Below are positions 47,615 to 63,720 of a stretch of 64,000 nt of DNA, piece after piece. A model generated the notes under the pieces. It saw nothing but the letters and a program-made list of their open reading frames with translations. It did not search any database and was not told the DNA's origin. Origin of the DNA: Candidatus Altiarchaeota archaeon (GTDB lineage Archaea; Altiarchaeota; Altiarchaeia; IMC4; QMZM01); the NCBI GenBank assembly GCA_016931955.1, contig JAFGDV010000002.1, positions 1 through 64,000 on the forward strand, given 5' to 3'. Position 1 is the stretch's first letter; every line of letters begins with the position of its first letter. The translations under genes were made by a program, and so were the position numbers.

Positions 47615-49762
47615 ATGAAGCCCATTATTTCTCATATCCTGTGGATCGGCATTTTTACATTACTTGTCTGGGGATTTCTCGCACCCCTGGTTGATGCTGC
47701 CTTTGATATTGGTATGGACATAGAATTAAGCGATACCGAGATCGACGCAGGCGATTCATTCAATGTCCGGATAAACATCACCAACAAAGACGATGAGGAT
47801 ATAGAAACATCAGATGACATACGGATAACGATCGAGGCCGATGGTGATGTAGTCCACTATGATATAGAGAACAGGAACATACCAGAGAATACATCAGAGA
47901 TCATAAGCATTTCATCAAGTAATTTTAAGACAGATGAGGGGGAGGATATATGGGGCGAGTCCCTCATGGGCTACGAATGTGGGAGTATCAGCTTAAAGGT
48001 GACCGTTTCAGGCGATGTTAAATCATCAAGTGATAGTGAAACCGTGAAGATCGTAGGCGATAAGCTCTACGTCGCCATGGAGCCTGAAAACCCCACCACT
48101 GGAAAAAATATAGGGGTTCAAGTCGAAGACGAAAACGGCGACCCACTTGATGACATATATGTGAGAATAGTGCGGCTTGGGGATGCAGGGTGGGATATCG
48201 ACGACGTGAAGAGGGAGAAAAAAACAGACAACGGTGAGGCAACATTCGACGCTGTGGATGAGGACTTTCGGTTCAAAGACGACCCCTACGGAAAATACCA
48301 ATTGAGTGTCTGGGAGGACGGCTACTGCCTTTACAGGAAGGCCTTCGAAGTCACAAACAAGCTCAAGATAACAGAGGCTCCTGAAAACCCATATGCCGGA
48401 GATGAGATAAAGGTGAAAATCCTGGACATAAATGACAACAGAGTGGAGGGAGCAAGGGTAGCGGTAAGCGGTGTAGGCGGTTTAGTCGGCTCATACAACT
48501 CGGACAGCAGCGGTTATGCTAAATTCAAATTAGAGAGCCAAGGAAGCTATACCCTCCTCGCCTCAAAGACAGGTTATGAGGATAGTGACATTGTCTCAAT
48601 AACGGTCAAGGACAGGAGGGGTATGGACGTTAGGATTGATCCAATAAAGCAAGCGATAGGGCAGGATGTTTCAATAACGATAACCTCTGGGGGGAATCCC
48701 ATAGAAAACGCCGAGGTCATGATAGAGAAACCCGACGGCTCAAAGGACACCCTGTCAACATCCTCAACAGGGAAGATGGTCTACAAGCCAAGCATGTCTG
48801 GCACATATGATATAACAGTCAAAAAACAGGGCTATGAAACAACAACTTCCAGTTTCATTGCTATGAATTTCTTCAATGTCTCAGTTCCAGAGAAGCTAGA
48901 GCTAAAAGATGAAGTAACCATTACAGTGAGGAACCAAGACGGCAGAAACATTGAAGGCGCTTCCGTCGAAATCGTGGGTTCGATCATCAACGGCTTGACG
49001 GATTCCGCGGGTAAATTTAGCTTCATCTTGGATAACGTAGGTGAGTACGTCTTATCGATAAAGAAAGAGGGCTACGAGGATTATAGTGAGAAGCTAACCT
49101 TTTATGGGAGCCTTACGGTGAGGGTAACCCCTGAGGTGATAGACCTGGGTGATTCAGTGGAGATAAGGGTACTGGATGAAGAAGGAAGAGAGATTGACGT
49201 AGACATGGTCATAGAGAAACCAGATGGTAGAAAGGAGAACATCAAGGGAAGCACTCATACATTAACGCCCAACTTGGCTGGATCCTACAACGTAACGGCG
49301 AACAAAAGGTATTACACACCATCAACAGCTGACTTCACGGTCAACCCCTACCAACTTGACCTTAACGTCTGGGTGAGTGGCAGTAATCTGATGATAAAGG
49401 CAACCAGGAACAATGAACCGGTTGGAAACATCAGCGTGTCTGTTCTGACACCCGACGATGACGAAATCTTCCTCAAAACTGATGAGGAGGGTGTTGCAAG
49501 GCTCAACATAAGGGAACTAAACCAGACTGGGACCTTCACCATAAGTTCTGTGGACATCAACTACGAGAAAAAAACAGTCACAAGGGAGATAACTGGTGCT
49601 GGAGAGAACCTTCTGCCACTGCTTCTGTTGATAATATTGGTCGTGGTATTGCTTATCATACTGATATCCCTTACCCTGTATATAAGCCACAAGAGCAAAA
49701 GAAGCGCCTTACCAAGTGAAAAAACAAAGAAAACAAAGGGTGGAGGCCTCGGTAGGCTCTGA
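47615..49762 (+). CDS. Second large Ig-repeat membrane-anchored surface protein (paralog of the upstream gene)
   Basis: Same architecture and shared motifs (ECG, YC, KPDG, GxYxxxxxKxGY, TVNP), C-terminal TM and basic tail. Confidence 0.8.
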   Translation: MKPIISHILWIGIFTLLVWGFLAPLVDAAFDIGMDIELSDTEIDAGDSFNVRINITNKDDEDIETSDDIRITIEADGDVVHYDIENRNIPENTSEIISISSSNFKTDEGEDIWGESLMGYECGSISLKVTVSGDVKSSSDSETVKIVGDKLYVAMEPENPTTGKNIGVQVEDENGDPLDDIYVRIVRLGDAGWDIDDVKREKKTDNGEATFDAVDEDFRFKDDPYGKYQLSVWEDGYCLYRKAFEVTNKLKITEAPENPYAGDEIKVKILDINDNRVEGARVAVSGVGGLVGSYNSDSSGYAKFKLESQGSYTLLASKTGYEDSDIVSITVKDRRGMDVRIDPIKQAIGQDVSITITSGGNPIENAEVMIEKPDGSKDTLSTSSTGKMVYKPSMSGTYDITVKKQGYETTTSSFIAMNFFNVSVPEKLELKDEVTITVRNQDGRNIEGASVEIVGSIINGLTDSAGKFSFILDNVGEYVLSIKKEGYEDYSEKLTFYGSLTVRVTPEVIDLGDSVEIRVLDEEGREIDVDMVIEKPDGRKENIKGSTHTLTPNLAGSYNVTANKRYYTPSTADFTVNPYQLDLNVWVSGSNLMIKATRNNEPVGNISVSVLTPDDDEIFLKTDEEGVARLNIRELNQTGTFTISSVDINYEKKTVTREITGAGENLLPLLLLIILVVVLLIILISLTLYISHKSKRSALPSEKTKKTKGGGLGRL

Positions 49763-49809: not shown

Positions 49810-50862
49810 ATGATAGAAGTAAACACCAACATACTGGGCTCATTTGCTTTAAAGGGAGGGAGGATAATAAAGAAGATACTCTTCCCAAAAGACACGATAA
49901 AACTCGCAGAAAAACTTATGGAAATAGAAAACGCCGTCTGTGATGAAGAAAAAGAGCTTATCTCTTATTTGTTGGAAACTGGAACGAAATCCATAAAGCT
50001 CAGGGACCCGGACAGATTCTCCATGTATCGTGGGGATATGGATTTACTTGAAGACAAGACCCCAACCAGTTTGTTGGATATCGCATCAGAGCTGGGGATA
50101 CCTGAGAAAGATGTTACCAAACTGCTGGATAGCGTTAATCTGGAGATAACCAAGGTAAGGATGAGGGAGATAAGCAGGGACCAGCTTATAATGCAGGCTG
50201 TCGCATCTATCGATGAATTGGAGGAATCAATAAATACACTTATAAAGAGGCTTCGTGAATGGTATTCCCTGAATTTCCCAGAACTCGATTTTTTGGTGAA
50301 AAAACATGACTTATATGCTAAGCTTGTGAGCTCTGACCTAAGAGATGCTGATGAGGGTCTAAGAAAGAGTATTGAGGAAGCTAGGAAGCAAACCCTTGGC
50401 GTGGACTTCTCCGAGGAGGACAAAAAATCAGTAAAGTACCTGTCAGATAGTATTTTAGGTCTTTACATGGCTGAACAGAACATTGAGTCATACATCGAAG
50501 AGGCTATGGGGGGTATAGCTCCGAACATGGCTGCACTGGCTGGCCCCATACTCTCCGCCAGGATTATCTCGCTTGCTGGAGGCTTAGAGAGGCTGGCTAA
50601 ACTGCCGGCGAGCACAATCCAGGTTTTGGGTGCAGAGGATTCCTTCTTTAGGTTCCTGAGGACTGGGGAGAGGCCACCCAAACATGGGGTGATATTCCAG
50701 CTCCCTGAGATAAGGTCCGCACCAAAGAAGGTCAGGGGTAAGGTATCTCGCATCTTTGCCGCTAAGATGGCCATCGCCGCTAGAACTGACTTCTTTAGGG
50801 GGGAATTTATTGGGGATAAGCTCAGGGGTGACTTTTTAGGGAAGCTAGAAAAGTTGAAATGA
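49810..50862 (+). CDS. nop5: C/D box sRNP protein Nop5 (Nop56/58)
   Basis: RLREWY..NFPEL, IAPN...LAG, LPASTIQVLGAE, PPKHGVIFQ, RGK..R..A.K motifs. Confidence 0.92.
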   Translation: MIEVNTNILGSFALKGGRIIKKILFPKDTIKLAEKLMEIENAVCDEEKELISYLLETGTKSIKLRDPDRFSMYRGDMDLLEDKTPTSLLDIASELGIPEKDVTKLLDSVNLEITKVRMREISRDQLIMQAVASIDELEESINTLIKRLREWYSLNFPELDFLVKKHDLYAKLVSSDLRDADEGLRKSIEEARKQTLGVDFSEEDKKSVKYLSDSILGLYMAEQNIESYIEEAMGGIAPNMAALAGPILSARIISLAGGLERLAKLPASTIQVLGAEDSFFRFLRTGERPPKHGVIFQLPEIRSAPKKVRGKVSRIFAAKMAIAARTDFFRGEFIGDKLRGDFLGKLEKLK

Positions 50863-51764
50863 ATCCGGAGGTTACTTCATTGGGTGATGTAAACGTCGAC
50901 ATCATCACAGCGAAGTTGGAGAACATGCCTGAAAGGGATTCCCAGACTCTTGTTCCAACTATTAGATTAAGCTCTGGGGGTTGTGCTGCAAACCTCGCTA
51001 AGGCCTTGAACAGGCTCGGAACAAAGGCGAGGTTAATCGGCAAGGTGGGGGATGACTTCTTCGGTGGTTTCCTTGGGGGTGACTTGGAAGGCGTCGACCT
51101 GAGGCTTTCAGTCGGCAGTAGAACTGGCATTACTGTTGGAATCACCTTCGAAGACAATACAAGGTCTTTTATAACCTATCCGGGATCGAATTCGGAATTG
51201 GTTTATGGGGACATAGACTTTGATCTTATCGAGGGTAGATGCCTCCACATCGCGAGCTTCTTCCTCCAAGGCCTAAGGGAGAACACGAAAAAAATCCTTG
51301 ATTTCGCCCACAGCAAGGGGATGGTTACCTCATTTGACACGGGATGGGATCCACGTGGTTGGTCTTCTGGGGACCAGGAATTGGTAAGAGAAACCCTGAA
51401 ACACGTTGACTTGTTTTTCCCCAACGTAAAGGAGGGAGAAGCGATTACTGAAGCTCGGGATGAGCGGACTATTTGCGGGAGGCTTCTGGATATGGGTCCA
51501 CGGGTTGTTGCACTGAAGGCTGGGAACAGGGGGTGTTATGTAGCCAGTGAGGGTGATTTTTTCTTTGTACCCTCTTTTAGGGTTGATTCCTTAGACACTA
51601 CAGGTGCAGGGGATGTGTTTGATGCGGGTTTTGTCTATGGTTATCTCAAGGGCTGGGATCTTGAACTGATGGGTAGATTCGCGAACGCTGCTGCCGCATT
51701 AAGCACCACAGGCTATGGAACCCAAAAGTACCCGACCCTTGAGGAAGTGGGGAAACTGCTGTAA
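50859..51764 (+). CDS. PfkB family carbohydrate kinase
   Basis: GG.AAN.A, GKVGDD.FG, FPN..E, DTTGAGD.F motifs. Confidence 0.92.
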   Translation: MNPEVTSLGDVNVDIITAKLENMPERDSQTLVPTIRLSSGGCAANLAKALNRLGTKARLIGKVGDDFFGGFLGGDLEGVDLRLSVGSRTGITVGITFEDNTRSFITYPGSNSELVYGDIDFDLIEGRCLHIASFFLQGLRENTKKILDFAHSKGMVTSFDTGWDPRGWSSGDQELVRETLKHVDLFFPNVKEGEAITEARDERTICGRLLDMGPRVVALKAGNRGCYVASEGDFFFVPSFRVDSLDTTGAGDVFDAGFVYGYLKGWDLELMGRFANAAAALSTTGYGTQKYPTLEEVGKLL

Positions 51765-51781: not shown

Positions 51782-52447
51782 TTAGGTGAAGAGTTTGTGG
51801 ACCCATGATTTTCCTTTTTTCTCTTTTATGTTCTCTTTGGTTTTTTTGTCGATGAGTGTCAGTAGTTTTGTCGCTGAGTTTGATTCGAGTAGTATGATAA
51901 AGTTTCCTGAGACTTCTCCCTTCAGACCCTTGAATTCTACCTCAACTATGAGACCGACGTTGACCTCTCTCCGCACCCCTAGGAGGACGAAGTTTACTAT
52001 GGAGCTTGCAAAATTAAAAACCGTTACTGGTTGTGATGGATAGATCTTTATTTCTACGAAATCGGCTATTGCATTCATGAACGTTGCCGTCAGGATGCTT
52101 CCAATCTCTTCCAGGATTGAACGACCTTCCATATCCACCATATCCGTGGTCCCGACCTCCCTGCCCTCTAGTGTGTCTATGAATATGAGGGCTGTTTTCC
52201 GCGGGAATATCAGGATGGTTGTACCAGAGATATCCCCCAGAACCCGTGAGTATACGCCTACAGACAGGACGTTATTTTTGCCGAAGTATTTTGGTATCTG
52301 GCTTATGGGTATGAGGCTTAGTTTAGTGAGCCTAACATTGACTCTCTCATCTATCATCTTTGAGAGAGCTGTGCTTGAATGCCACATCGCTATTGCTATA
52401 ACCTCTTTTAGAGCATCCTTCGCTAGTTCGGTTAAGTTAAGTGTCAC
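51782..52447 (-). CDS. cheC: CheC-like protein (both active-site Asn absent)
   Basis: CheC pattern: DALKEVIAI...ALSKM, G.I.G, SILEEIGSIL. Confidence 0.8.
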   Translation of the reverse strand: MTLNLTELAKDALKEVIAIAMWHSSTALSKMIDERVNVRLTKLSLIPISQIPKYFGKNNVLSVGVYSRVLGDISGTTILIFPRKTALIFIDTLEGREVGTTDMVDMEGRSILEEIGSILTATFMNAIADFVEIKIYPSQPVTVFNFASSIVNFVLLGVRREVNVGLIVEVEFKGLKGEVSGNFIILLESNSATKLLTLIDKKTKENIKEKKGKSWVHKLFT

Positions 52448-52648
52448 TTTTGATATTCCCGTTAAATATAAAGGGTTGCATTCATATTAAAACTTGATGC
52501 AGTTTAAACCGGTCTGGTCTGATTCCATGGGGAGCCTGATTACAGGAAAAAAAAGTCGCTAGGGTTTATGACGCAACGAGAGATAGGAAGAAAGAAATCG
52601 TCACTTTCGCTGAGTGCTTGGGGAAGAAACCTATTCTAGGAGAATGTT

Positions 52649-52691
52649 AAAAAAGGATGGATTCTCCATTCGATCAATGGAGAATGTATCC
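52649..52691 (-). terminator. Hairpin plus T6 terminator after cheW
   Basis: Perfect 10-bp stem attctccatt (52661-52670) / aatggagaat (52676-52685); A6 at 52649-52654; immediately after the cheW stop. Confidence 0.7.
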
Positions 52692-53237
52692 TCACTTTGG
52701 TTTCTTTTCCAGTGTTTTTAGCTCGTCTAACTGCTCTTCATCTAAGAGGTTTTCTCCTTCAATGGTCTTCTGTATGTTGTCTATATGTTCATAGTCTTCA
52801 TCAACCAAGACCTTGCTTAGATCCAACAGGATGAGCAGTCTTTCGCCTATTATACCCACGCCTTCCAGGTAGTCTGAACTGACCCTCTTCGCTATTATTG
52901 AGGGCGCTGGCTCAACCTGGTCACTGTTAAGCCTCATAACCTCTGTGGCTGAGTCAACTATCATACCAACTGTGTTTCCAACTACTTCAAGGACTATTAT
53001 CCTTGTGTCGGTGTTGGCCTTCCTCAGGGGGAGACCCAACTTCATGGCAAGATTTATGACTACCACGATCCCTCCTCTGAGGTTGATGACTCCTTCGATG
53101 TATTCTGCTGTATTGGGTATCTTCGTTATTTCCTCCATACGGATGATCTCTCGAACATCGCTTATGTTCACACCGAATTCCTCATCACTAAGGGTAAAGA
53201 CTACAATCTGCCTCTCCTCATCATCTCCTCCTTTCAT
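52692..53237 (-). CDS. cheW: Chemotaxis coupling protein CheW
   Basis: VVF.L..EEFG, V.EII, IP....YIEGVINLRG, VGMIVD motifs; ATG 53237 follows a GAGGGAG SD. Confidence 0.93.
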   Translation of the reverse strand: MKGGDDEERQIVVFTLSDEEFGVNISDVREIIRMEEITKIPNTAEYIEGVINLRGGIVVVINLAMKLGLPLRKANTDTRIIVLEVVGNTVGMIVDSATEVMRLNSDQVEPAPSIIAKRVSSDYLEGVGIIGERLLILLDLSKVLVDEDYEHIDNIQKTIEGENLLDEEQLDELKTLEKKPK

Positions 53238-53279
53238 TTCTCCCTCTAATCCTAGTCTTGCAGGCATTCTATGCACCCC

Positions 53280-55412
53280 TCAGATTCTTTCATTACCTAG
53301 TTTTAATCGTCCCGTGTTTCCTATGTCATCAAAGCTTCTAGCTCCAAATTGGCCTTGCTCTCTTATCTTGAACTTGGAAACAACGGTCTTCAGCTCCTCG
53401 GCGCTGAGGTTGAATTGTTGAGCTGTCTTTGACACCTGCTGCATGGAGGCTGTGACGCTCTGCACTGAAGAGGATACCTCCTCAGAGCTGGCCGCGTTTT
53501 CTTGAGCTACCTCTGCCATCTCAACCAGTGAGCTGGTCACACCCTGTACTAGGTCGGGTATTGCTTCGAATGACTTCATCGCCTCTTTTACGGCGGCTAT
53601 ACCTTCCTCGACCTGCTTTGTGTTGTCATCCATTGTGCTGACTGCATGTGATATCTCGTTCTGTATGTCCGTTATCAAACCCGCAATCTGTTCGCTTGCG
53701 CCTCTCGAGTCCTCGGCGAGCTTCCGTACCTCGTCTGCTACAACCGCGAATCCTCTTCCAGCTTCACCTGCTCTTGCGGCCTCAATCGCTGCGTTCAGCG
53801 CCAGTAGGTTGGTCTGCTCTGCTATGTCCTTGATCGTGTCCACGATCCTACCTATCTCCTCTGACTTTCCGCCAAGTGATCCGATCTTTGAAGCGCTTTC
53901 CTTTGATGTAACGCTTATCTGAGCCATCTTTTCGTTCACGAGCTTGGCTGACTTGCTTCCTTCTTCGGCGCTCTCTGCTGTTTTCTTGGCTAATTCCTGC
54001 GACTCTGTGGCCCCTTGTGAAACGATCTGCACCCCTTTGACGATCTCCTGCATTGTCGAAGCTACTTGTTCCATCGCCGCATTTGTTTCCTCGGACGACG
54101 CTGAAAGCTCCTCAGCAGCTACTGCTGTTGAAGTGGCGTTATTCTTTATGTTTCCTATCAGATCCATGAGGTTGCTGGCCATTGTCGCGAATGCATTACC
54201 TATCATACCTACCTCATTCTTAGCGGATATGCCAACGACATCTAGGGTAAGATCACCAGCTGCTACACGCTGCATCTGCCTGACTATCAGGTTAAGCCGG
54301 TTGGTCAGGAAGTTCGCGAAGAAGTAAGCCGCCAGTGAACCGAGTACTATAGCCAGTGCACACACCATTATCGTCATGTCCTGAATCTGTATTATCCCAT
54401 CATCGAAGTCTTCCCCGTAGGCGCTTGAAGCGATGACCCATTCCCACTCATCGAAATATGCGAAGGCTGCAAGCTTGCTCGAAGCCCTGCTTTCTCCTTT
54501 ATTCGCCCACGTGTAACGGTATACGTCTGTCTCTCCCTCACTCAGGGCTGTTGCCTTGTCTATTATCTCTTGTATGAAGAGGGTTCCATCATCCAACTTC
54601 GAATTGATGATGTTCTGTCCATCGCTCTCCCTCTTGTATGAGAGAACATAGTTCCCTTTTGTGTCAAGTATCCAGATGTATCCCCGCTCTCCTATGACTA
54701 CCTTGGCGAGGTTGCCCTTCAGTGTTTCCTGATACTCATTCTCAGGCACGCCAACGTATAGGACGCCTATCACCTTATTGCTTTCATCCTTTATTGGTTC
54801 ATAAGCGCTTAGGTAGTACCCAGTCACCACGAATGCTCTTCCGTAGTAGGTCTGACCCCTCATCACAGTCTGATAAACCTCTGAATCAGATGGGATGTAT
54901 GTTCCAACAGCCCTTGAACCATCCAGGTTAAGGACATTGGTTGATATCCTCAACAGCCCGTTAGGGATGACTTGGAATACTGTCGCTGTCCCGCCCACCA
55001 TGCTCTGGATTTCGTCAACGATCTCGTAGTTGTAAGCAAGCTGCTTTTCGCCTATCTTCATCTTTGAGATGGTTACTGGCTGGCTGCCTTGGGTTACCTG
55101 GTTTACGGCGGTGAACTCCATTGTCTCCATTGGATCCAAGTAGGGCCTGCCATAGCCATACATAACGCTGCTGGCAACCCTCAGATCAGAGTTCACCTTG
55201 CTCTGCGCCACCTCATAGATGTTCTGAACATCCTTTGAGATTATCAGGGCTTGCTCTTGCAGCATTCCTTCGATCTGATTGAAGGTCTCTCTACTGGTCG
55301 AATCATAGCTGATGTAACCAAGCGTTACTACTGGTATCGACACCAGCAAGATGCAGATAGCCATCAGTTGCCATCTAATACTTATATCATTAAATATGTT
55401 TTTGATGTTCAT
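53280..55412 (-). CDS. Methyl-accepting chemotaxis protein with tandem Cache domains and HAMP
   Basis: Two TM helices, Cache motifs ([29 protein letters not shown]; GYIWI..YRYTW), HAMP, and tip [37 protein letters not shown]. Confidence 0.95.
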
Positions 55413-55456
55413 CTATATCACCTTTTTCTTTCTTTATTTTGTTTTTTTAATCTTAT

Positions 55457-55505
55457 ATGGGCAGTTTGATAGCTGGGGTGGGTGCGCCCATCAGACCACC
55501 CTAAG
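55457..55505 (-). ncRNA. Candidate structured 5' leader (H-type pseudoknot) of the mcp-cheW transcript
   Basis: GC-rich island with two interleaved 6-bp stems, located between the TATA box TTTATATA (55536-55543) and the SD AGGTGA (55418-55423). Confidence 0.4.
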
Positions 55506-55716
55506 TTTTATCTTCTAAAGTTATTTCTGCAAACTTATATAAATATGTTTCTATATTTCTACGTCGGCATAGTGATATCTCAACATAATTATCATTTGAC
55601 TAAACGCTCATGAGCCACATTATAAGTCAAAAGAATGCATATAACATCTGAAGATGGCTGTATTAGATCAACAAAAAATAGGTTAAGTATTTACTTATTA
55701 CTGCCATCTTATGCTA

Positions 55717-56130
55717 TCACTTATAAAAGATAGGTTTACCTTTAGATCGGACCAACCAATACTCTACAGTCCTGCCAACCCTCTTCCTTGAGATAACACC
55801 CTTGCTCTCCAAACTCTTAAGATGTTTACTGAGGGTTGGTTTGGTTACCCTTGTTTTCCCGAGCAATTCAGTAAAATTCAGTTTACCTTTGTCTAAGGCT
55901 GCTAATATACTGTCTTCAAGATTTTCCTCCCCAATTGTCAACCTTTCTTTACCAATCATCGACTTGATCTCCATTACCTCCATAAACAACCGAGGGATTA
56001 TGCCAGAATCCTCACCCAGTAGCCTGCGATTCAAATCCCTCAAGTCCTCCAATATCTGGGCTATCCTCACATCATCCACACTTCTGCGCCCTATTTCCCC
56101 CCTCAATCTGCTAAGATCATCGGAATCCAT
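55717..56130 (-). CDS. Winged helix-turn-helix DNA-binding protein (ArsR/MarR-like C-terminus, helical N-terminus)
   Basis: LNFTEL...VTKPTLSKHLKSLESKGVISRKRVGR..EY; ATG 56130 lies 1 nt after the cheC stop, with a GGGTGAG SD. Confidence 0.85.
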   Translation of the reverse strand: MDSDDLSRLRGEIGRRSVDDVRIAQILEDLRDLNRRLLGEDSGIIPRLFMEVMEIKSMIGKERLTIGEENLEDSILAALDKGKLNFTELLGKTRVTKPTLSKHLKSLESKGVISRKRVGRTVEYWLVRSKGKPIFYK

Positions 56131-56131
56131 C

Positions 56132-56806
56132 TCACCCAAGCCCCTCCCCAAATGGAGAACCAAGCTTCGTTTGAATGGCTTTGAGGATATTCCCAATTGA
56201 TTTGTCATCAAGTAGGAAAACGAATTCCCCCCTCAGAGATCCCCCAGAACACATAAACTCGGTCTGGGATACTAGAGAATAATTTATTGACTCCTTCACA
56301 CTCAAAAGCACAAAATAGACAATAGCGCTTGCTATATCAAAGACTACTGACGGCACAGACAACTCAACCTCCAGATCCAAGAACTCAGCTAAGGTATTGA
56401 CATACGATGCAGAGAGTATGCTCCCCAGCTCGCCCAAGGCAGACCTATCAATGCTCTTCATAACATCCGTAGTTCCAGGCTCCCTACCGTTCAGTACATC
56501 AACCAGGGACAATGCGCTCTCCCTTGAGAAGAATAGGAGGCTTGTGCCGGCAAGATCCCCCCTCAACCTCACGTATATGCCAGTCACAAGCATATTTTTC
56601 TGTCCCACGCAGCTTGCAATCTGGTCTAAGGGGATCAGATCCATTCCAGACATCTCTATGTCGACCCTCCTATCAATCAATTCAGATAAAGCGATTGTTG
56701 CATGGCCCATACCGATAGTCGCTATCTCCTGTAGCGCGTCAAGCTGAAGCTCTGTCAACTTCCCATACAAGCTATCGCTCTCCACCGCTTCCTTCCTATA
56801 GGACAT
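56132..56806 (-). CDS. cheC: CheC-like protein (both active-site Asn absent)
   Basis: DALQEIATIG.GHA..ALS and SALGELGSIL motifs. Confidence 0.85.
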   Translation of the reverse strand: MSYRKEAVESDSLYGKLTELQLDALQEIATIGMGHATIALSELIDRRVDIEMSGMDLIPLDQIASCVGQKNMLVTGIYVRLRGDLAGTSLLFFSRESALSLVDVLNGREPGTTDVMKSIDRSALGELGSILSASYVNTLAEFLDLEVELSVPSVVFDIASAIVYFVLLSVKESINYSLVSQTEFMCSGGSLRGEFVFLLDDKSIGNILKAIQTKLGSPFGEGLG

Positions 56807-56819
56807 GTTGCTCCCCAGA

Positions 56820-57440
56820 TCAAAGAGACTTCAATTTTCTGTCAATCTTGTTAACCAGAACGCCCAACGAAGACGAATCCAAGAGGAATATGAAATCACC
56901 CGTTATCTCGCCCCTCTTCCCCCTGAATTTGACCTGGATAATCAAAACAGACTCTATCCTCTTATCAATGCCTCGAAGCACGAAATCTATCAGAGACTTT
57001 GCGACGTCAAAAACAATGCAGGGAGGAGAATGATACAAGGTAACACCTAAAAAGTTGCCCAACTCGGTGAGGTAACTTGCCGTCAATATGTTACCAACCT
57101 CTCCCAAGGCAGAGCGATCATCGTAACTTAGAATCTCCGTGGTCCCAATATCCCTGCCGTAGAGCAGGTCAGATAAAGCCAGTGAGCTCTCACGCGAGAG
57201 GACCAAGAGGCTTGTTCCGCCCAGGTCGCCCATCATCCTCAAGTAGATACCCATTGCAAGCGTATCTGGACCCCCCACCCTCTTCGGCACTTCCCCTATA
57301 GGCAGAAACTGCACCTTAGACATCTCTACCTCAACACGGCTTTCAACCATCTTGGAGAGCGACTTTGTGGCAGTGACCATGCCTTTATCCGCAACGCCCT
57401 TTAAAGCCCTCTTTTGTCCCTCCGTAAGTTGAGCAACCAT
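56820..57440 (-). CDS. cheC: CheC-like phosphatase (only site 2 intact)
   Basis: Site 1 is degenerate (RALKGVADKG); site 2 is SALGEVGNIL. Confidence 0.85.
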   Translation of the reverse strand: MVAQLTEGQKRALKGVADKGMVTATKSLSKMVESRVEVEMSKVQFLPIGEVPKRVGGPDTLAMGIYLRMMGDLGGTSLLVLSRESSLALSDLLYGRDIGTTEILSYDDRSALGEVGNILTASYLTELGNFLGVTLYHSPPCIVFDVAKSLIDFVLRGIDKRIESVLIIQVKFRGKRGEITGDFIFLLDSSSLGVLVNKIDRKLKSL

Positions 57441-57450
57441 CTTCTTTTAC

Positions 57451-57930
57451 TTAGATCGAGGTAGTCGGACCATGTATCCTGCTGACGACGACCTCACCTG
57501 TTTCGGTGTCGAACCAGATAGATCTGCCCTCGGTCCCGCCAACATCCTCGGCTACTATCTCAATGCACTTCTCTCTGAGCTTTTTTCTGACTGCTTCCAC
57601 ATTTTTCTTGCCTATGTCAGATATCCTTGGTACGTTGGGGAAAATCTCGGCTCCGCCGCATAGTTTCGCTTTTATATCATGTGTCTTGCAGCCGAGGATG
57701 AGCATGCTCTTTACCATGGCATCTACTGTCTTGTCGACGAACCTCAGGGGATTGATACCCTGAGCAGCCTCTTTGCTATCTGGGAGGATTATGTGAGCTA
57801 AAGCGGCTATCTTTGTCTTCTCGTCTCTTAGACAGATGGCTACGCATGAGCCCAAACCAAGAACCTCCAGTATGCAAGGATTATGTATTATCTTGAACTC
57901 TGCCATGCCGACTGTTATCTTCTTAGTCAT
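57451..57930 (-). CDS. cheD: Chemoreceptor glutamine deamidase CheD
   Basis: GLGSCV, AHIILP, AKLCGGA, IGKKN, EDVGG..GR motifs. Confidence 0.93.
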   Translation of the reverse strand: MTKKITVGMAEFKIIHNPCILEVLGLGSCVAICLRDEKTKIAALAHIILPDSKEAAQGINPLRFVDKTVDAMVKSMLILGCKTHDIKAKLCGGAEIFPNVPRISDIGKKNVEAVRKKLREKCIEIVAEDVGGTEGRSIWFDTETGEVVVSRIHGPTTSI

Positions 57931-58576
57931 CTTTTTTTTCTTCCATCTCCAAGAGGTACCTGACGTTTTTGATAAGCACGCCCATGTGAGAGTAAAACAG
58001 AACTACGAAGTGGCCGGTTATCTCCAACCCTTCTACGAGGAATCGGGTGTTGAACAAGAGGGCATTTTCGACATCGCAGGCATGTTGCGCTATTATGGGG
58101 TCCATCACAGAGTCGAGCATATCCGCTGCCAGCGCTGGAAGAGACTCCACAAGGCTCAGGTTAAGGTACTCTGCAATTGCAGAGAGATAGCTTCCTGCGA
58201 GGATGTTTCCGATCTCCATCAATGTGGAACGATCCATATCCGACAGCTCTTCAGCTCCAGTTGCTTCCTCCCCTTGCAGGATCTTCGCAAGTGTTGCCGC
58301 ATCCTTTACAGGGAGTACCAGAAGTAGACTGCATACCTCGAATTGGTTATCAAGGGATGTGCCATCAATATGCAGGTATATGTTGGTTATCTCCTTCTCT
58401 GGTCTGCCCATCTTGGATGTGACGGTTTCAAGGGGACACACCTCCATCCAAGGAAAGCTTACCTCGATCTTCTTGTCTGTAAGGGACGATAGGGCGATCG
58501 ATGCATGCCCAGCTCCAATGGAGGATATCTCCATCAGGGCATCTAACTCCAGTGGCGTCAGGTTCTTGAATTTCAT
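57923..58576 (-). CDS. cheC: CheC-like phosphatase (only site 2 intact)
   Basis: DALMEISSIGAGHA..ALS and STLMEIGNILAG motifs. Confidence 0.88.
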   Translation of the reverse strand: MKFKNLTPLELDALMEISSIGAGHASIALSSLTDKKIEVSFPWMEVCPLETVTSKMGRPEKEITNIYLHIDGTSLDNQFEVCSLLLVLPVKDAATLAKILQGEEATGAEELSDMDRSTLMEIGNILAGSYLSAIAEYLNLSLVESLPALAADMLDSVMDPIIAQHACDVENALLFNTRFLVEGLEITGHFVVLFYSHMGVLIKNVRYLLEMEEKKDD

Positions 58577-59577
58577 AGTATCTCAACGATTTTATCTGCG
58601 ATACCCAGCAAAGGCAGGATGAAATCCGCATCCCCGTTTCTTATAATCATTTTAGGCATTCCAAATATTAAACTTGTTGATTCATCTTGGACTATGATCT
58701 TTCCACCATTCTTTTTTACCCACTTCACCCCATTCGCGCCGTCATCTCCCATACCAGTTAATATAACCGCTATTACGTTTTTACCGCATACCTTCGAAAC
58801 GGACTTCAATGTGACGTCTATGCAAGGCTTTACTATAGTATGTTTTTTGTTTAATTGAGTAAATAAATGTTTCCCTTTTTGCACTACCTCCAGGTTGTAA
58901 CCCCCAGGAGCCACTAGAACCTTGCCTTTATCAAGTAGGCTGCCTTCTTTTGCTTCTTCCACCTTTAGTGGGCACACTGCATCCAGCGTCTCAGCGAACG
59001 CCTTAGTGAATCCCGCCGGCATGTGTTGTACGACTAGAACGGCAGCTGGAAAATCCTTTGGGAACGAAGACAGTATAGTTCTAATTGTGGCCACACCACC
59101 GCAGGAAGCACCCAATACCAAAACCTTCTCGGATATCTTAGGCGCAGACAATTTTTTCTTCGGCTTCTTTATCACGAGTTTTTTTATCTCAAGGGATGAT
59201 GCGACTCGCACCAATGCTATCAGCTCTTCCTTCATTTCCTCCAGATCGCTGAGCCGGTTAGGCATCACTATGAAGTCCACTGCCCCATAGCCTAAGGCAC
59301 TCAGCATCTCCCGCCTTCCCAGATCAGATTCTCGGCCGACCACTATCGTTGGAGTAGGATCAAGCAGCATTATGTTGTAGAGGATGTCCAATGCATGTAC
59401 TCCCTTCATCTCTATGTCTAGTAGAACAACATCCGGCTCAAGGAGCTCAATCTTGTCTAAAGCCTCCTCAGCTAGACCAGAGCGGTGGATGACCTTTATC
59501 TCTGGTTCGGACTCCAGCATACATGTAAGCTTGACCCCAAAAAAATAAGAATCCGCTATTATGAGGACCTTGATCAT
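58573..59577 (-). CDS. cheB: Chemotaxis methylesterase CheB with a degenerate receiver domain
   Basis: Catalytic GASCGG, VQHMP, LTGMGDDGA, plus FGMP; N-terminal REC domain. Confidence 0.92.
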   Translation of the reverse strand: MIKVLIIADSYFFGVKLTCMLESEPEIKVIHRSGLAEEALDKIELLEPDVVLLDIEMKGVHALDILYNIMLLDPTPTIVVGRESDLGRREMLSALGYGAVDFIVMPNRLSDLEEMKEELIALVRVASSLEIKKLVIKKPKKKLSAPKISEKVLVLGASCGGVATIRTILSSFPKDFPAAVLVVQHMPAGFTKAFAETLDAVCPLKVEEAKEGSLLDKGKVLVAPGGYNLEVVQKGKHLFTQLNKKHTIVKPCIDVTLKSVSKVCGKNVIAVILTGMGDDGANGVKWVKKNGGKIIVQDESTSLIFGMPKMIIRNGDADFILPLLGIADKIVEIL

Positions 59578-59586
59578 TCTCCCATT

Positions 59587-59955
59587 CTATGAGAATCTCC
59601 TGACAACATCAAGTATCTGCTCCCTCTTGAATGGTTTGGTTACGTAGGCCTTTGCACCTATCCTCATCGCTTCTTTCATAGGATCCCCATGGCCTATGGC
59701 GGTTACCATGACAATGACCGCTTTTGGATCTATTTTCATGATCTCGGCTAAGACCTGCAGACCATCCTTCTCTGCCATTATTATGTCCAGTAAGACGATG
59801 CCGGGCCTTTCTTTCTTGTAGACCTCAACTGTTTCAGTCCCGTTCTGGGCTTCAACGATATCGCGATAACCTTCCTCAGAGAGCATCGTCTTAAGCATAT
59901 TCCTCATGAAGGCAGAATCATCTGCCAACAATACCTTAGGTTTTGCCATTTTCAT
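59587..59955 (-). CDS. cheY: CheY response regulator
   Basis: ADDSAFMR, LLDIIM, VTA, KPF; stand-alone REC domain (the start may be 59949). Confidence 0.9.
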   Translation of the reverse strand: MKMAKPKVLLADDSAFMRNMLKTMLSEEGYRDIVEAQNGTETVEVYKKERPGIVLLDIIMAEKDGLQVLAEIMKIDPKAVIVMVTAIGHGDPMKEAMRIGAKAYVTKPFKREQILDVVRRFS

Positions 59956-60310
59956 CCAAGAGTTTGTTTATGTTTTTAATCAACTTTGCCTCAGTTATCG
60001 GCTTTGATATGTATGAGCACGCCCCTCGTTTGATGCAGTCCTCCATGGTCTTCTGATCCCTTATTATGCTCGACACTATAATCTTCACCTCGGGTTTGAT
60101 CTCCATCAGCCTATCGAGCACATACAACCCGTCATTGCCAGGCATCTTCAGATCGAGCAATACGATATCTGGATCCTCTACACCGCACTTTAGTATGCAA
60201 TCGTTTCCGTTAACGGCCTCGACGACATCACTGTACCCGTTTTTTTGGAGGATGCTAATCAACGCCCTGCGCTCGAACATGGAGTCATCTGCTACAAGTA
60301 TCTTGACCAT
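59936..60310 (-). CDS. cheY: Second CheY-like stand-alone response regulator
   Basis: ADDS, LLDLKMP, VSS, KPI motifs; ATG 60310 (or GTG 60319). Confidence 0.85.
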   Translation of the reverse strand: MVKILVADDSMFERRALISILQKNGYSDVVEAVNGNDCILKCGVEDPDIVLLDLKMPGNDGLYVLDRLMEIKPEVKIIVSSIIRDQKTMEDCIKRGACSYISKPITEAKLIKNINKLLDENGKT

Positions 60311-60396
60311 CAGCACCACTATCTTGACTAATTAAATATCTATCTTCTCATTTATATCCTTTTTGTTTTTCTCATTTAAAGTTCTATTCTATTATA

Positions 60397-60759
60397 ATGC
60401 ACGAGTTCTCGATAGCTGAAGACATCCTGGAGGTCGCACTGGATGAGGCGGAAAAGCATAAAGCTTCCAGGATAAAACACATCTCTGTGGAGGTTGGAGG
60501 GCTCATGATGGCGAACCTCGAGCAATTGGATTTCGCCCTCAGATCCCTGTCAGTTGGAACCCTTGCAGAGGATATGGAAGTCGACCTGAAGACGGTCCCT
60601 GGGAGATTCAAGTGCGACAACAACCACGTGAATGAGGTAAGTATTGAGGAGGATGACCTCTACCTGGCCCTAGCCTCTCTCAGATGCCCTGAATGCGGCA
60701 GCCCTCTAAGGGTGTTGAGCGGAAAAGAGTGCGTGCTGAAGAGGATAATCGCCGAATAA
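60397..60759 (+). CDS. hypA: Hydrogenase nickel metallochaperone HypA
   Basis: N-terminal MHE, CPECG, GKE motifs. Confidence 0.92.
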   Translation: MHEFSIAEDILEVALDEAEKHKASRIKHISVEVGGLMMANLEQLDFALRSLSVGTLAEDMEVDLKTVPGRFKCDNNHVNEVSIEEDDLYLALASLRCPECGSPLRVLSGKECVLKRIIAE

Positions 60760-60766
60760 CGCTAAA

Positions 60767-61417
60767 ATGCATGTGATAGACGTAGACAGGGATATCATGG
60801 AGATCAACAGGAGGATATCTGAAAGGAACCAAAGAGTCTTGGAAGAGAACAATGTCTTTGGATTCGATGTTTTGGGGGCTATCGGCTCTGGCAAGACCTC
60901 CCTGATTGAGGCCTTGGTTGGGAGGATCGGGAAAAAACTGGGGATCGGAGCGATAGCGGGTGACGTTATTAGTGACGCCGACGCCAGCCGTTTGAAGAGG
61001 TGTGGAATCCCAGTCATCGGCTTGAACACTGGAAGGGAGTGCCATCTTGACGCCCACCTCGTCGAGCATGCGCTTGAGAGCCTTCCATTAAAGGACCTCG
61101 ACATTCTGTTCATAGAGAACGTGGGGAACCTCATATGTCCAGTAGACTTCCCGCTTGGGGCACATCGGAGGATCGTTGTAGTAAGCGTGAGCGAGGGGGA
61201 CGACACCGTAGAAAAGCACCCCATGATCTTCCTGGACTCTGATCTTGCGGTGATAAACAAGATAGACATCGCAGAAGCGGTTGATGCGAGCGTTGAGAAG
61301 ATGGAATACGACGCCAAACGGATCAATCCACGGCTGCCTGTGATAAAAACAAGCATGAAGAAGGGTATCGGTCTAAACGAAATAGTCGATTGGATAAGAA
61401 AAGAATCCAATCTATAG
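60767..61417 (+). CDS. hypB: Hydrogenase nickel incorporation GTPase HypB
   Basis: GSGKT, ECHLDA, ENVGNLICP, EGDD, NKID motifs. Confidence 0.95.
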   Translation: MHVIDVDRDIMEINRRISERNQRVLEENNVFGFDVLGAIGSGKTSLIEALVGRIGKKLGIGAIAGDVISDADASRLKRCGIPVIGLNTGRECHLDAHLVEHALESLPLKDLDILFIENVGNLICPVDFPLGAHRRIVVVSVSEGDDTVEKHPMIFLDSDLAVINKIDIAEAVDASVEKMEYDAKRINPRLPVIKTSMKKGIGLNEIVDWIRKESNL

Positions 61418-61432
61418 TTTAATGGTGATATC

Positions 61433-61672
61433 ATGTGTCTGGCTATCCCAGGAAGGATCCTGGATATAAAGGACAATGAAGCATCTGTTGACTTCGGCGG
61501 CGTGAAAAGGCCTGTTAGGATTGACTTAGTCGACGCCAAGGTGGGAGACTACGTCATCGTCCATACGGGATACGCAATCGAGGTATTGGATGAAGAGGAA
61601 GCTCTTGAAAGCCTGAAACTGTGGAGACAAATCCTCTCCAAAATGGACGATGATCCTAAGAGATTTCCGTGA
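61433..61672 (+). CDS. hypC: Hydrogenase chaperone HypC
   Basis: MCLAIPG, VGDYVIVH.GYA motifs. Confidence 0.95.
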   Translation: MCLAIPGRILDIKDNEASVDFGGVKRPVRIDLVDAKVGDYVIVHTGYAIEVLDEEEALESLKLWRQILSKMDDDPKRFP

Positions 61673-62720
61673 TAGGGGGCTTGCCTTGAAGGCGTCAAAG
61701 GAGATAGGGGATATGGCATCAACCTTGGGCAAGGTAAAGATCATGCACGTCTGCGGAACCCACGAAGACACAATAACCCGTTTTGGGATAAGGTCTCTTC
61801 TCCCAGAGAATGTGGAGGTGATATCCGGTCCTGGATGCCCTGTCTGCGTTACGACGAACAGGGAGATAGATGAAGCCATATCGCTCGCACAAAAAGGCAT
61901 TACTGTGACGACGTTCGGTGACATGCTCCGGGTCCCTGGAAGCCGCTCCTCGCTGGCGGACTCGAAGGCTGATGGAAATGATGTGAGGATCGTCTACTCC
62001 GTAACTGACGCAGTAGAGATCGCCCATAAGAATCCGGAGAAAGAGGTTGCTCACATCGCCATAGGCTTCGAGACAACGATACCATCCAACGCGGTCGCCC
62101 TCCAAGACGCTCCTGAGAATTTCTCGATCCTATGCTGTCACCGGCTTATCCCTCCAGCGATGGAGTTGCTCTTGGAGTCTCACGAGGTGAGGATAGACGG
62201 CTTCATAGATCCTGGGCATGTTTCAGCCATAATAGGAGTAAAACCCTATAGACCTCTGGCGGAAAAATACAGGATACCTCACGTAATCGTCGGCTTCGAG
62301 CCCCTTGACGTTCTCTTCTCCATCATAATGCTGCTGGAGATGATAAAAAACCATGAATGTGAGGTAAGGAATGAGTACAGCCGCGTCGTCAAGGAGGAAG
62401 GCAATCAGAAGGCCTTAAGTATCATGGACGCTGTCTTCGAACCCTGCGACGTGGATTGGAGGGGCTTTCCTGTGATCCCAAGATCCGGGCTCATGTTGAG
62501 GGAACGATTCGCTGAACACGACGCAAGAGAGAGGTTCGAGCTTAGGGTAGAACCGACAGAGGATCTTCGGGGATGCAGGTGCTCTGATGTCTTGAAGGGG
62601 TTGATATATCCCAGAGAGTGCCCGCTCTTCGGTAAGGCGTGCACTCCCAAGAAGCCTGTCGGTCCCTGCATGGTCTCTGCTGAGGGCGCATGCTCTATAA
62701 TGTACAGACACACTAGCTAG
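61650..62720 (+). CDS. hypD: Hydrogenase formation protein HypD
   Basis: VCGTH, GPGCPVC, GFETT, PGHVS, GPCMVS.EG.C motifs. Confidence 0.97.
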   Translation: MILRDFRDRGLALKASKEIGDMASTLGKVKIMHVCGTHEDTITRFGIRSLLPENVEVISGPGCPVCVTTNREIDEAISLAQKGITVTTFGDMLRVPGSRSSLADSKADGNDVRIVYSVTDAVEIAHKNPEKEVAHIAIGFETTIPSNAVALQDAPENFSILCCHRLIPPAMELLLESHEVRIDGFIDPGHVSAIIGVKPYRPLAEKYRIPHVIVGFEPLDVLFSIIMLLEMIKNHECEVRNEYSRVVKEEGNQKALSIMDAVFEPCDVDWRGFPVIPRSGLMLRERFAEHDARERFELRVEPTEDLRGCRCSDVLKGLIYPRECPLFGKACTPKKPVGPCMVSAEGACSIMYRHTS

Positions 62721-62721
62721 G

Positions 62722-63720
62722 ATGGAAAGGATAAAACTCTTACACGGTGGCGGGGGGGAAGCCATGCAGGAATTGATCTCTGACGTGATTAAGAACCTCT
62801 CCCTCACAAAGGTTGAGGGTGGGATCGGCTTGGATGCCTTGGACGATTCAGCAACCATACCCTTTGGAGACAAGCACCTTGTCTTCACCACGGATGCGTA
62901 CACTGTAAAGCCGTTGTTCTTCCATGGGGGGGACATAGGCAGGCTCTCTGTTTCAGGGACCATAAACGACCTCGCTGTTATGGGCGCTAAACCAATCGCT
63001 CTCGCCTCTTCTTTCGTTATCGGTGAAGGCCTCCCATTTGAAGACTTGCGGAAGATAACGAAGTCCATGAACCAGGTCTGCAAGGAGGTCCCAGTACCTA
63101 TTATTACAGGAGACACCAAGGTCATGGAAGACCTTGATATGATCATAACAACGTCTGGCATAGGTTTAACAGAAAAACCGATACTGGACTCCGGGATGCG
63201 GCCAGGTGACAGGATAATAGTGAACGGCACCCTCGGCGATCACGGTATGGCGATCATGGCTCAGAGGGAGGGCATATCTTTCGAGACCGAACTGAGGTCT
63301 GACTGCGCACAGTTGTGGGGTCTTATAAAAAAGATCCTTAGATACGAGATACATGCCATGAAGGATCCTACGAGAGGCGGCCTAGCGAACGCCTTAAATG
63401 AGATGGCTGAGAAATCAAAATCAGGGGTTTTGTTGTATGAGGACCAGATACCCATGAAAGATGAAGTACTTGCGGCGTCTGAGATGCTTGGCATAGATCC
63501 CCTGTCTGTGGCAAACGAAGGGAAAGCCATTATTGTCACAAGCGAAAATGATACTGAGAAAATCCTAGAAACGATGAAGAAGACCCGCTTGGGTCGGGAT
63601 GCCTCCATAATAGGTGAGGTGACCGAAAAAGATAAGGGACGGGTGATAATGGAGACCCGCATAGGTGGCAGAAAGATCCTCAGCAAGCCTGCCGGCGACC
63701 CTGTCCCAAGGGTCTGTTAG
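62722..63720 (+). CDS. hypE: Hydrogenase maturation dehydratase HypE
   Basis: HGGGG, GDTKV, KDPTRGG, ANEG and C-terminal PRVC. Confidence 0.97.
   Translation: MERIKLLHGGGGEAMQELISDVIKNLSLTKVEGGIGLDALDDSATIPFGDKHLVFTTDAYTVKPLFFHGGDIGRLSVSGTINDLAVMGAKPIALASSFVIGEGLPFEDLRKITKSMNQVCKEVPVPIITGDTKVMEDLDMIITTSGIGLTEKPILDSGMRPGDRIIVNGTLGDHGMAIMAQREGISFETELRSDCAQLWGLIKKILRYEIHAMKDPTRGGLANALNEMAEKSKSGVLLYEDQIPMKDEVLAASEMLGIDPLSVANEGKAIIVTSENDTEKILETMKKTRLGRDASIIGEVTEKDKGRVIMETRIGGRKILSKPAGDPVPRVC

Follow-up and report, generated by a model that had tools for sequence, protein, structure and literature searches.

A split Che phosphorelay with a probably non-archaellar output in an Altiarchaeales archaeon

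The first 64,000 bases of contig C5 (112,470 bases) in the genome of a Candidatus Altiarchaeota archaeon, a stretch that we call the window, carry a cluster of chemosensory (che) genes that holds four cheC paralogues and no gene for the kinase CheA. The genome under study, G000, is a metagenome-assembled genome (MAG) that is 92.4% complete and consists of 46 contigs. In our view this cluster probably forms half of a Che phosphorelay that is complete and split and has a non-archaellar output. The preliminary description of the window had called the cluster kinase-less, an impression that arose because the window ends before cheA while the contig continues. A full cheA gene lies at C5:69342-70931 and cheR at C5:72094-72915, so the kinase-less label falls; the alternative offered alongside it, a kinase encoded elsewhere, was the correct one, with both genes 9-12 kb farther along the same contig than the window cluster. 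Apparent loss of a kinase can stem from where a sequence window stops. What remains is a Che system without an archaellum to steer, which is a real oddity and is conserved in the lineage: a complete Che pathway is retained in six genomes from three Altiarchaeales genera, with no archaellum or CheF found in them.

A phosphorelay in two halves

Whole-genome searches place the sole CheA dimerisation domain of G000 at C5:69795-69968 and its sole CheR match at C5:72121-72702, inside a second half of the system that spans C5:66.9-74.8 kb. This half opens on the minus strand with parA, encoding a ParA-like ATPase (C5:66897-67772; AAA_31, 161.9 bits), and cheC_e (C5:67866-68516). On the plus strand follow cheY3 (C5:68598-68963), cheY4 (C5:68964-69323), the cheA gene, whose 529-residue product combines Hpt, dimerisation, HATPase and CheW domains, cheC_f (C5:70867-71625) and cheD2 (C5:71618-72097); cheR is on the minus strand. 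Beyond it lie cheC_g (C5:73019-73627) and two genes of 200 residues each, C5:73629-74231 and C5:74241-74843, for a protein that we name iKaiC and describe below. The stretch from cheY3 to iKaiC (C5:68.6-74.8 kb) begins 8 kb and ends 14 kb past the window cluster.

The window half is encoded entirely on the minus strand. An operon of eight genes, which overlap or are separated by gaps of at most 13 nt, starts with two stand-alone receivers, cheY1 (59936-60319; Response_reg, 84.9 bits) and cheY2 (59587-59955; Response_reg, 92.8 bits), and continues with the methylesterase gene cheB, which encodes an N-terminal receiver (58573-59577; CheB_methylest, 198.7 bits, plus Response_reg), cheC_a (57923-58576; CheC, 46.2 bits), cheD1 (57451-57930; CheD, 99.7 bits), cheC_b (56820-57440; CheC, 37.8 bits), cheC_c (56132-56806; CheC, 49.5 bits) and a gene for a winged helix-turn-helix (wHTH) protein of 137 residues (55717-56130). 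After an AT-rich spacer of 304 nt at 55413-55716 comes mcp (53280-55412), whose methyl-accepting chemotaxis protein (MCP) has a Cache3-Cache2 sensor (Cache_3-Cache_2, 280.5 bits), a HAMP domain and an MCP signalling domain (MCPsignal, 151.4 bits), then cheW (52692-53276; CheW, 123.3 bits) and, past a gap of 244 nt, cheC_d (51782-52447; CheC, 24.2 bits against a Pfam cut-off of 22). This order, cheY-cheY-cheB-cheC-cheD-cheC-cheC-wHTH, then mcp-cheW, then cheC, is the one given in the preliminary description, and the list of open reading frames (ORFs) and Pfam scans bear it out. The bounding genes, pfkB (50859-51764, plus strand) and hypA (60397-60759, plus strand), were also correctly named, and cheA, cheR, cheF and archaellin are indeed absent from the 64 kb.

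The two halves have paralogous layouts, cheY-cheY-X-cheC-cheD, where X is cheB in the window and cheA in the other half, and the genes pair accordingly: CheY1 with CheY3, CheY2 with CheY4, CheC_a with CheC_f and CheD1 with CheD2. When all 6,810 ORFs of G000 were surveyed with phmmer, cheB proved to be single-copy, and cheW, likewise present once, gave no paralogue. In all, the genome holds one CheA, one CheB, one CheR, one CheW, two CheD, two MCPs, four che-linked CheY and seven CheC, so that the core proteins CheA, CheW, MCP and CheY and the adaptation set CheB, CheR, CheC and CheD are all present by Pfam cut-offs. The four CheC paralogues counted earlier are thus right for the window and short for the genome, since three more are encoded on the same contig. 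The second MCP, 318 residues long and matching the window MCP with an E-value of 1e-126, is encoded at C17:953-1909 and may be a truncated or cytoplasmic receptor.

Comparison with 40 related genomes (41 with G000) places the system in a lineage. CheA was found in six of the 40: in G004, G013, G017, G020 (as fragments only) and G021 of the same family, f1, and in G028 of another family. With G000, the che-bearing genomes of f1 number six and represent three genera; the same-genus genome G001, which is 73% complete, shows no CheA. In the sister-genus genome G004 the che system forms one uninterrupted cluster with seven CheC, in the order cheC-cheC-cheD-cheC-cheB-cheY-cheW-mcp, parA-cheC_e, cheY-cheY-cheA-cheC-cheD, cheR, cheC_g-iKaiC and a seventh cheC. 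Downstream of the che system G004 and G000 share genes for glycogen debranching and isocitrate dehydrogenase. In G000 the window cluster is followed on the plus strand by hypA, hypB, hypD and hypE (60397-63720; HypA, cobW/HypB, HypD and AIRS/HypE domains), then by hycI, a hydrogenase-like trio, parA, cheC_e and the genes from cheY3 onward. Neither the hyp/hydrogenase block nor the trio adjacent to cheC_e occurs in the G004 cluster, and because the two halves are contiguous there without it, we regard the hyp and hydrogenase block as an insertion in the G000 lineage. An orthologue of the ParA-like ATPase, whose role in array positioning is putative, lies beside cheC_e or cheY-cheA in G004, G013 and G017 and at loci L068 and L069. 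The conserved unusual parts of the system are its seven CheC, a CheA that lacks the P2 domain, the ParA-like ATPase, and a dead-site CheC with an inactivated KaiC-like protein encoded directly after it.

Conserved and degenerate parts of the machinery

The active sites of CheC follow the pattern D/S-x3-E-x2-N-x22-P, which we applied as a pattern to each paralogue. Both sites are intact in one of the seven (CheC_f), one site is intact in three (CheC_a, CheC_b and CheC_e), and neither is intact in the other three (CheC_c, CheC_d and CheC_g). CheC_a keeps S-x3-E-x2-N-x22-P at the second site and reads E-x2-S at the first; CheC_c has E-x2-T/S instead of E-x2-N at both. The CheC domain exceeds its cut-off in six of the seven, and CheC_g reaches only 20.2 bits, yet it matches its paralogues with E-values of 1e-23 to 1e-36. 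None of the four CheY proteins has lost the phospho-acceptor Asp, the acidic pocket, the Ser/Thr or the Lys. The archaeal CheY model is the best match of CheY2 and CheY4; for CheY2 this is the NCBIfam model CheY_Halo, at 118.6 bits and under the cut-off of 200. Alignment of CheA to a relative of 653 residues matches P1 at residues 2-109 and P3-P5 at residues 244-653, and because about 10 residues replace about 134 between P1 and P3, the CheY-docking P2 domain is absent. Full-length CheA occurs four more times in the family, at 528-529 residues.

Could this be a decaying remnant, in which the archaellum is lost and che genes that no longer serve a function are drifting toward loss? The missing P2 domain, the degenerate sites of three of the seven CheC proteins, a complement of only two MCPs and the CheA-less genome of the same genus would all fit such a history. 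We nonetheless think it unlikely. All 22 genes are open, the phospho-acceptor residues are kept in every CheY and both sites in CheC_f, and CheA is full length, free of stops and 53-61% identical in four further genomes of two other genera (61% between G000 and G004). The set of seven CheC and the CheC_g-iKaiC pair are maintained between genera, and dead-site CheC_g and iKaiC have a predicted interface that is conserved.

No archaellum or CheF found in the che-bearing genomes of family f1

In known archaeal systems the Che pathway acts on the archaellum, and we consider whether this is ordinary archaellum-directed chemotaxis whose arl and cheF genes are merely missing from an incomplete MAG. 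Searches of the whole of G000 with the CheF (PF04283) and archaellin (PF01917) profiles gave zero matches. The CheF profile recovers CheF in three known archaea and is over its cut-off in none of the 41 genomes, including the archaellated relatives G005 and G028, which served as positive controls for the archaellum. Archaellin is found in eight of the 41 genomes, so archaella do occur in the order; the six che-bearing members of family f1 are not among these eight. With the ArlI equivalog model (cut-off 550 bits) G005 reaches 720 bits and G028 reaches 715, against about 284 in G000, G004 and G013; among these five genomes the FlaC_arch (ArlCDE) and FlaH (ArlH; cut-off 215 bits) models exceed their cut-offs in G005 and G028 only.

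The incompleteness of G000 and its 46 contigs leave room for missing genes, and still we judge this explanation highly unlikely: archaellin, ArlI, ArlH, ArlCDE and CheF were not found in G000, G004 or G013, which belong to three genera, while four of these families (CheF being the fifth) stand far above their cut-offs in the two archaellated controls. An archaellum operon measures about 8-10 kb, and its chance loss from all six che-bearing genomes is unlikely. The premise of the preliminary description that signalling does not go to an archaellum therefore holds. The same description had envisaged, as the ordinary case, that cheA, cheR, cheF and an archaellum operon lie elsewhere in the genome and that the wHTH gene is unlinked from che genes in relatives. 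The genome matches this picture halfway, in that cheA and cheR are present and the wHTH gene is unlinked, and cheF and the archaellum were not found.

The genome of another family that carries CheA, G028 (85% complete; loci L037, L039 and L053), combines cheY-cheY-cheB-cheA with a full archaellum on contig C6 (archaellins, ArlI, ArlH and ArlCDE) and gives no CheF match.

A CheC-iKaiC pair as candidate output link

If the archaellum is not the target, how might the signal leave the phosphorelay? The two genes that follow cheC_g encode proteins of about 200 residues with a predicted single-domain RecA/KaiC fold (AlphaFold model, predicted local distance difference test, pLDDT, 90), whose top Foldseek matches include PH0284, KaiC and, at rank 5, FlaH (4yds), with E-values of about 1e-7 to 3e-8. 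Compared with six active KaiC-like proteins, G-x-x-G-x-GKT has become I-P-N-D/E-x-Y and E-E has become N-K; we chose the name iKaiC, for inactivated, because these substitutions remove the Walker A motif and the two catalytic glutamates. The FlaH equivalog model gives iKaiC at most 19 bits, far under the cut-off of 215.

The gene is closely tied to cheC_g, from which it is separated by 1 nt in G000 and 20 nt in G004, and with which it overlaps by 4 nt at locus L056. This locus, from an unrelated archaeal MAG (genome G041), is a single operon that runs mcp-cheW-cheC-cheY-cheY-cheB-cheA-cheC-cheC-cheD-cheR-cheC_g-iKaiC; CheF and archaellin were not found in G041. Among the best 80 of 296 metagenome stretches that encode an iKaiC relative, 14 carry che-specific genes, and of these, 12 have a cheC-like gene immediately before iKaiC, and in the other two iKaiC adjoins cheR; another 10 of the 80 have a receiver within 1.5 kb and no che gene. 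The gene upstream of iKaiC could be assessed in 56 of the 80 loci, those with at least 650 nt of upstream sequence, and encodes CheC in 12, a receiver in three and nothing from the reference set in 41. Across the related genomes the iKaiC profile reaches at least 330 bits only in che-bearing G000, G004, G013 and G020, and its best score in the 34 CheA-less genomes is 181 bits. A profile-free search with CheC_g among 1.84 billion representative proteins also returned a CheC::iKaiC fusion of 385 residues (P0045), in which residues 1-202 are CheC_g-like and residues 208-378 are 42% identical to iKaiC.

Structure prediction points in the same direction. Co-folding of CheC_g with iKaiC scored 0.87, against 0.00 for the best of three controls, and at least 97% of contacts are shared between runs, with a pLDDT of at least 88 for the partner. 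Of 80 solved complexes 58 reach this mark, as do two of 110 mismatched pairs, figures that apply only roughly here because our own alignments were used. The predicted interface on iKaiC comprises the degenerate P-loop together with the family-conserved residues Y24, N48, K49, T75, S93, S120, S122, Y127, L156 and D159. We know of no solved complex of CheC with a RecA-fold protein, and for this reason it seems unlikely that the prediction reproduces a memorised structure.

These observations make CheC_g-iKaiC the best current candidate for the output link. It is possible, and we propose it tentatively, that a dead CheC and a dead KaiC/ArlH-like protein together form an output adaptor that replaces CheF and couples phosphorylated CheY (CheY-P) to a non-swimming effector in archaellum-less lineages, namely the Altiarchaeales and at least one other. 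If true, this would give Archaea a first defined Che output other than the archaellum, and since the candidate pair consists of two small soluble proteins, Che control in non-swimming archaea would become directly approachable.

Several points weigh against this proposal and, in part, against a non-archaellar output in general. Every genome compared is a MAG, G000 itself being 92% complete, and the best ArlI-family score in G041 is intermediate, at 392 bits. The co-fold score is a model confidence and not a measurement. The fusion P0045 is a singleton on one contig of 2,454 bp and could reflect a sequencing frameshift, on which account we count it as a hint only; a search for longer iKaiC fusions found none, which is itself weak evidence. 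The che-bearing genomes G017 (75% complete) and G021 (60% complete) lack a high-scoring iKaiC. In 56 of the 80 metagenome loci there are neither che genes nor a nearby receiver, and some iKaiC relatives are fused to CBS domains; because the family is wider than che, iKaiC may serve signalling in general instead of standing in for CheF. The type IV filament loci of G000 contain no receiver, CheC or iKaiC gene, and no effector is named by them. A tree of 71 iKaiC proteins (the 80 metagenome sequences minus 11 removed for length, plus the two of G000) puts the che-linked members in about four groups with an unresolved backbone, which is compatible with a single origin of che-linked iKaiC and with several.

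Outside chemotaxis, genes for iKaiC paralogues and for stand-alone receivers are interleaved at two loci from DPANN-type MAGs (L058:8934-14410 and L057:199-1972), next to genes for a CBS protein, a FIST sensor and a HAMP-HisKA kinase, an arrangement that looks like a receiver-iKaiC signalling module. In DPANN-type loci iKaiC paralogues also occur as fusions with CBS pairs.

Which effector might a CheC-iKaiC adaptor serve? G000 has seven T2SSE-family matches, six of them PilB-like ATPases, encoded on C9, C10, C14, C19, C21 and C41, and one PINA-like, and because PilC-like genes were found as well, type IV filaments are present in this genome. The six PilB-like ATPases and one PilC-like protein gave matches only to T2SSE and PilB3_C, with no domain related to receivers or CheC. 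A different lead comes from the che loci beyond the Altiarchaeales. Five of them extend downstream of iKaiC, and in four of these an active KaiC-type ATPase, its GTGKT motif intact, is encoded within the next 3.4 kb. The best counterpart of these ATPases in G000 (C33:5436-6146) is encoded directly after a protein of 151 residues with a class III, type IV pilin-like signal peptide (L147:4916-6146). As a lead only, this neighbourhood would fit a partnership, perhaps at a filament machine, between iKaiC and an active KaiC-like ATPase.

Known family roles suggest how the complete pathway would run. A Cache-type chemoreceptor with CheW would control CheA, which would phosphorylate the four CheY proteins and CheB; CheB, CheR and CheD would provide receptor adaptation, and CheY-P would be dephosphorylated by CheC_f with its two sites and by CheC_a, CheC_b and CheC_e with one each. 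The later steps are less certain. CheC_c, CheC_d and CheC_g, which have no intact site, may serve as adaptors, and CheC_g may bind the adjacent ATPase-dead iKaiC through its former nucleotide pocket. The CheC-iKaiC pair might then take the place of CheF in linking CheY-P to an effector; a KaiC-type signalling hub would be one candidate, and any of the six PilB-like ATPases of type IV filaments another.

A winged-helix gene apparently added to the operon

A different output had been suggested at the outset: that the cluster is a kinase-less, rewired system that acts on transcription through the wHTH protein, whose gene is coupled to cheC_c. Parts of this idea have a basis. The wHTH ORF is genuine and is the last of its operon, with its ATG at 56130, 1 nt past the stop of cheC_c (junction TGA-g-ATG); CheC_c, in which neither phosphatase motif is intact, could act as an adaptor; neither an archaellum nor CheF was found in G000. 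Small HTH proteins are often encoded beside archaeal receivers, according to the available part of PMC5847659. The scores of the protein, which exceed the Pfam cut-offs for HTH_5 (29.6 against 22 bits), HxlR (25.9 against 20.8) and, narrowly, MarR (25.2 against 24.6), suggest an ArsR/MarR-type winged helix, preceded by a helical N-terminal half.

The distribution of the gene argues otherwise, and with CheA and CheR encoded 9-12 kb away the kinase-less part is refuted in any case. The 40 relatives contain no orthologue (best E-value 2.4e-5, 24 bits, with matches in unrelated HTH genes), and among 5.8 billion proteins there is one homologue besides the protein itself, 68% identical and a singleton on a contig of 5.9 kb. 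In the orthologous G004 cluster the gene is missing, the largest ORF past the last cheC there encoding 67 unrelated residues, and there is no match in the 80 metagenome loci, 14 of which have che genes; the cheC-cheC-wHTH linkage that the preliminary description proposed to look for in relatives was thus not seen in either set. Look-alikes retrieved from a language-model atlas are generic small archaeal wHTH proteins (score about 0.9). Because it has no orthologue in relatives, the wHTH gene is a lineage-specific add-on and cannot be the ancestral output, and transcription through it lacks support as a property of the system; we regard the kinase-less, transcriptional version as very improbable. 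With less certainty, the gene appears to have joined the operon recently in this genus, where its product would be at most a local regulator or side output and may regulate its own operon.

Relation to known systems

The reading that we favour, a split phosphorelay with an output other than the archaellum, can be set against several known families. With its CheC and CheD genes the system presumably fits the F1 class, and it resembles the archaeal F1-type systems in the same core Che set, in having several CheC and in CheD. In Halobacterium and Haloferax this set comprises MCP-CheW-CheA-CheY-CheB-CheR-CheC-CheD, and CheF links it to the ArlCDE proteins of the archaellum, as described in the available parts of PMC7289035 and PMC7534055. 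The system described here differs in that no CheF or archaellum was found, in its P2-less CheA, its seven CheC, its split cluster, and its conserved ParA-like ATPase and CheC-iKaiC pair. F1 systems co-occur strongly with archaella, at least in the section of PMC13747009 available to us. Within the accessible portion of PMC9680633, a survey of 352 archaeal genomes reports no chemotaxis system in DPANN and treats Che control of pili only as hypothesised. The text available from PMC4975002 reports 'flagellar genes' in Alti-2, with chemotaxis unmentioned in that text.

The CheC-CheD-FliY family of Bacillus subtilis and Thermotoga shares with our system the CheC fold, present in all seven paralogues, and CheC_f has both sites and adjoins cheD; unlike that family, three paralogues here have no intact site and one is predicted to bind a RecA-fold protein. 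We know of no RecA-fold protein that is a partner of CheC. Like ArlH/FlaH (PDB 4yds), iKaiC is a protein of about 200 residues with a single-domain RecA/KaiC fold, and it differs in lacking Walker A and the catalytic glutamates and in being encoded in che and not arl operons. The bacterial type IV pili (Tfp) and alternative cellular functions (ACF) classes of chemosensory systems, such as Pil-Chp, drive pili or other outputs. By analogy, our system would resemble them as a Che phosphorelay without a rotary swimming organelle in a genome with type IV filament ATPases, and it differs in that no pilus locus is seen here to be linked in the genome with che genes.

The idea of an archaeal KaiC-like signal transduction hub reportedly goes back to Makarova et al. 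2017 (mBio). As in such hubs, an inactivated KaiC domain would here act as a signalling module, and its relatives stand beside receivers or histidine kinases or are fused to CBS domains; in contrast to the hubs and to fusions of receiver and iKaiC, the protein described here is a stand-alone iKaiC paired with a dead-site CheC at the ends of che operons. Receiver-iKaiC and KaiC-receiver fusions and the 'KaiC hub' are treated in the available part of Galperin et al. 2018 (PMC5847659). Our literature searches on these topics returned no description of the CheC-iKaiC pair or of an Altiarchaeales Che system; an association of KaiC-like genes with neighbouring che genes may already be on record in Makarova et al. 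2017.

Neighbouring genes

The parA gene and genes for MvhD-like, small-subunit-like and large-subunit-like hydrogenase proteins (C5:64178-67772; L003:4178-7772) form a tight minus-strand unit with cheC_e. The large-subunit-like protein lacks the CxxC nickel-ligand motif at either end, and another hydrogenase on the contig (C5:83856-85292) retains CGVC and CLSC. An Rfam scan of the window gave zero matches.

Other signalling genes lie farther along C5. At C5:78871-81373 (L004:871-3373) two proteins have chemoreceptor-like Cache domains and lack any output domain, be it MCP signalling, kinase or another. Some 12 kb past the che system, C5:86947-95862 (L004:8947-17862) encodes five tandem paralogous HisKA-HATPase kinases of 527-554 residues and two stand-alone receivers. 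Within the window, on the plus strand at 47615-49762 and beside a Nop5 gene, a protein of 715 residues, hydrophobic at its C-terminus and containing repeated CarboxypepD_reg/Ig-like domains, is probably a surface protein.

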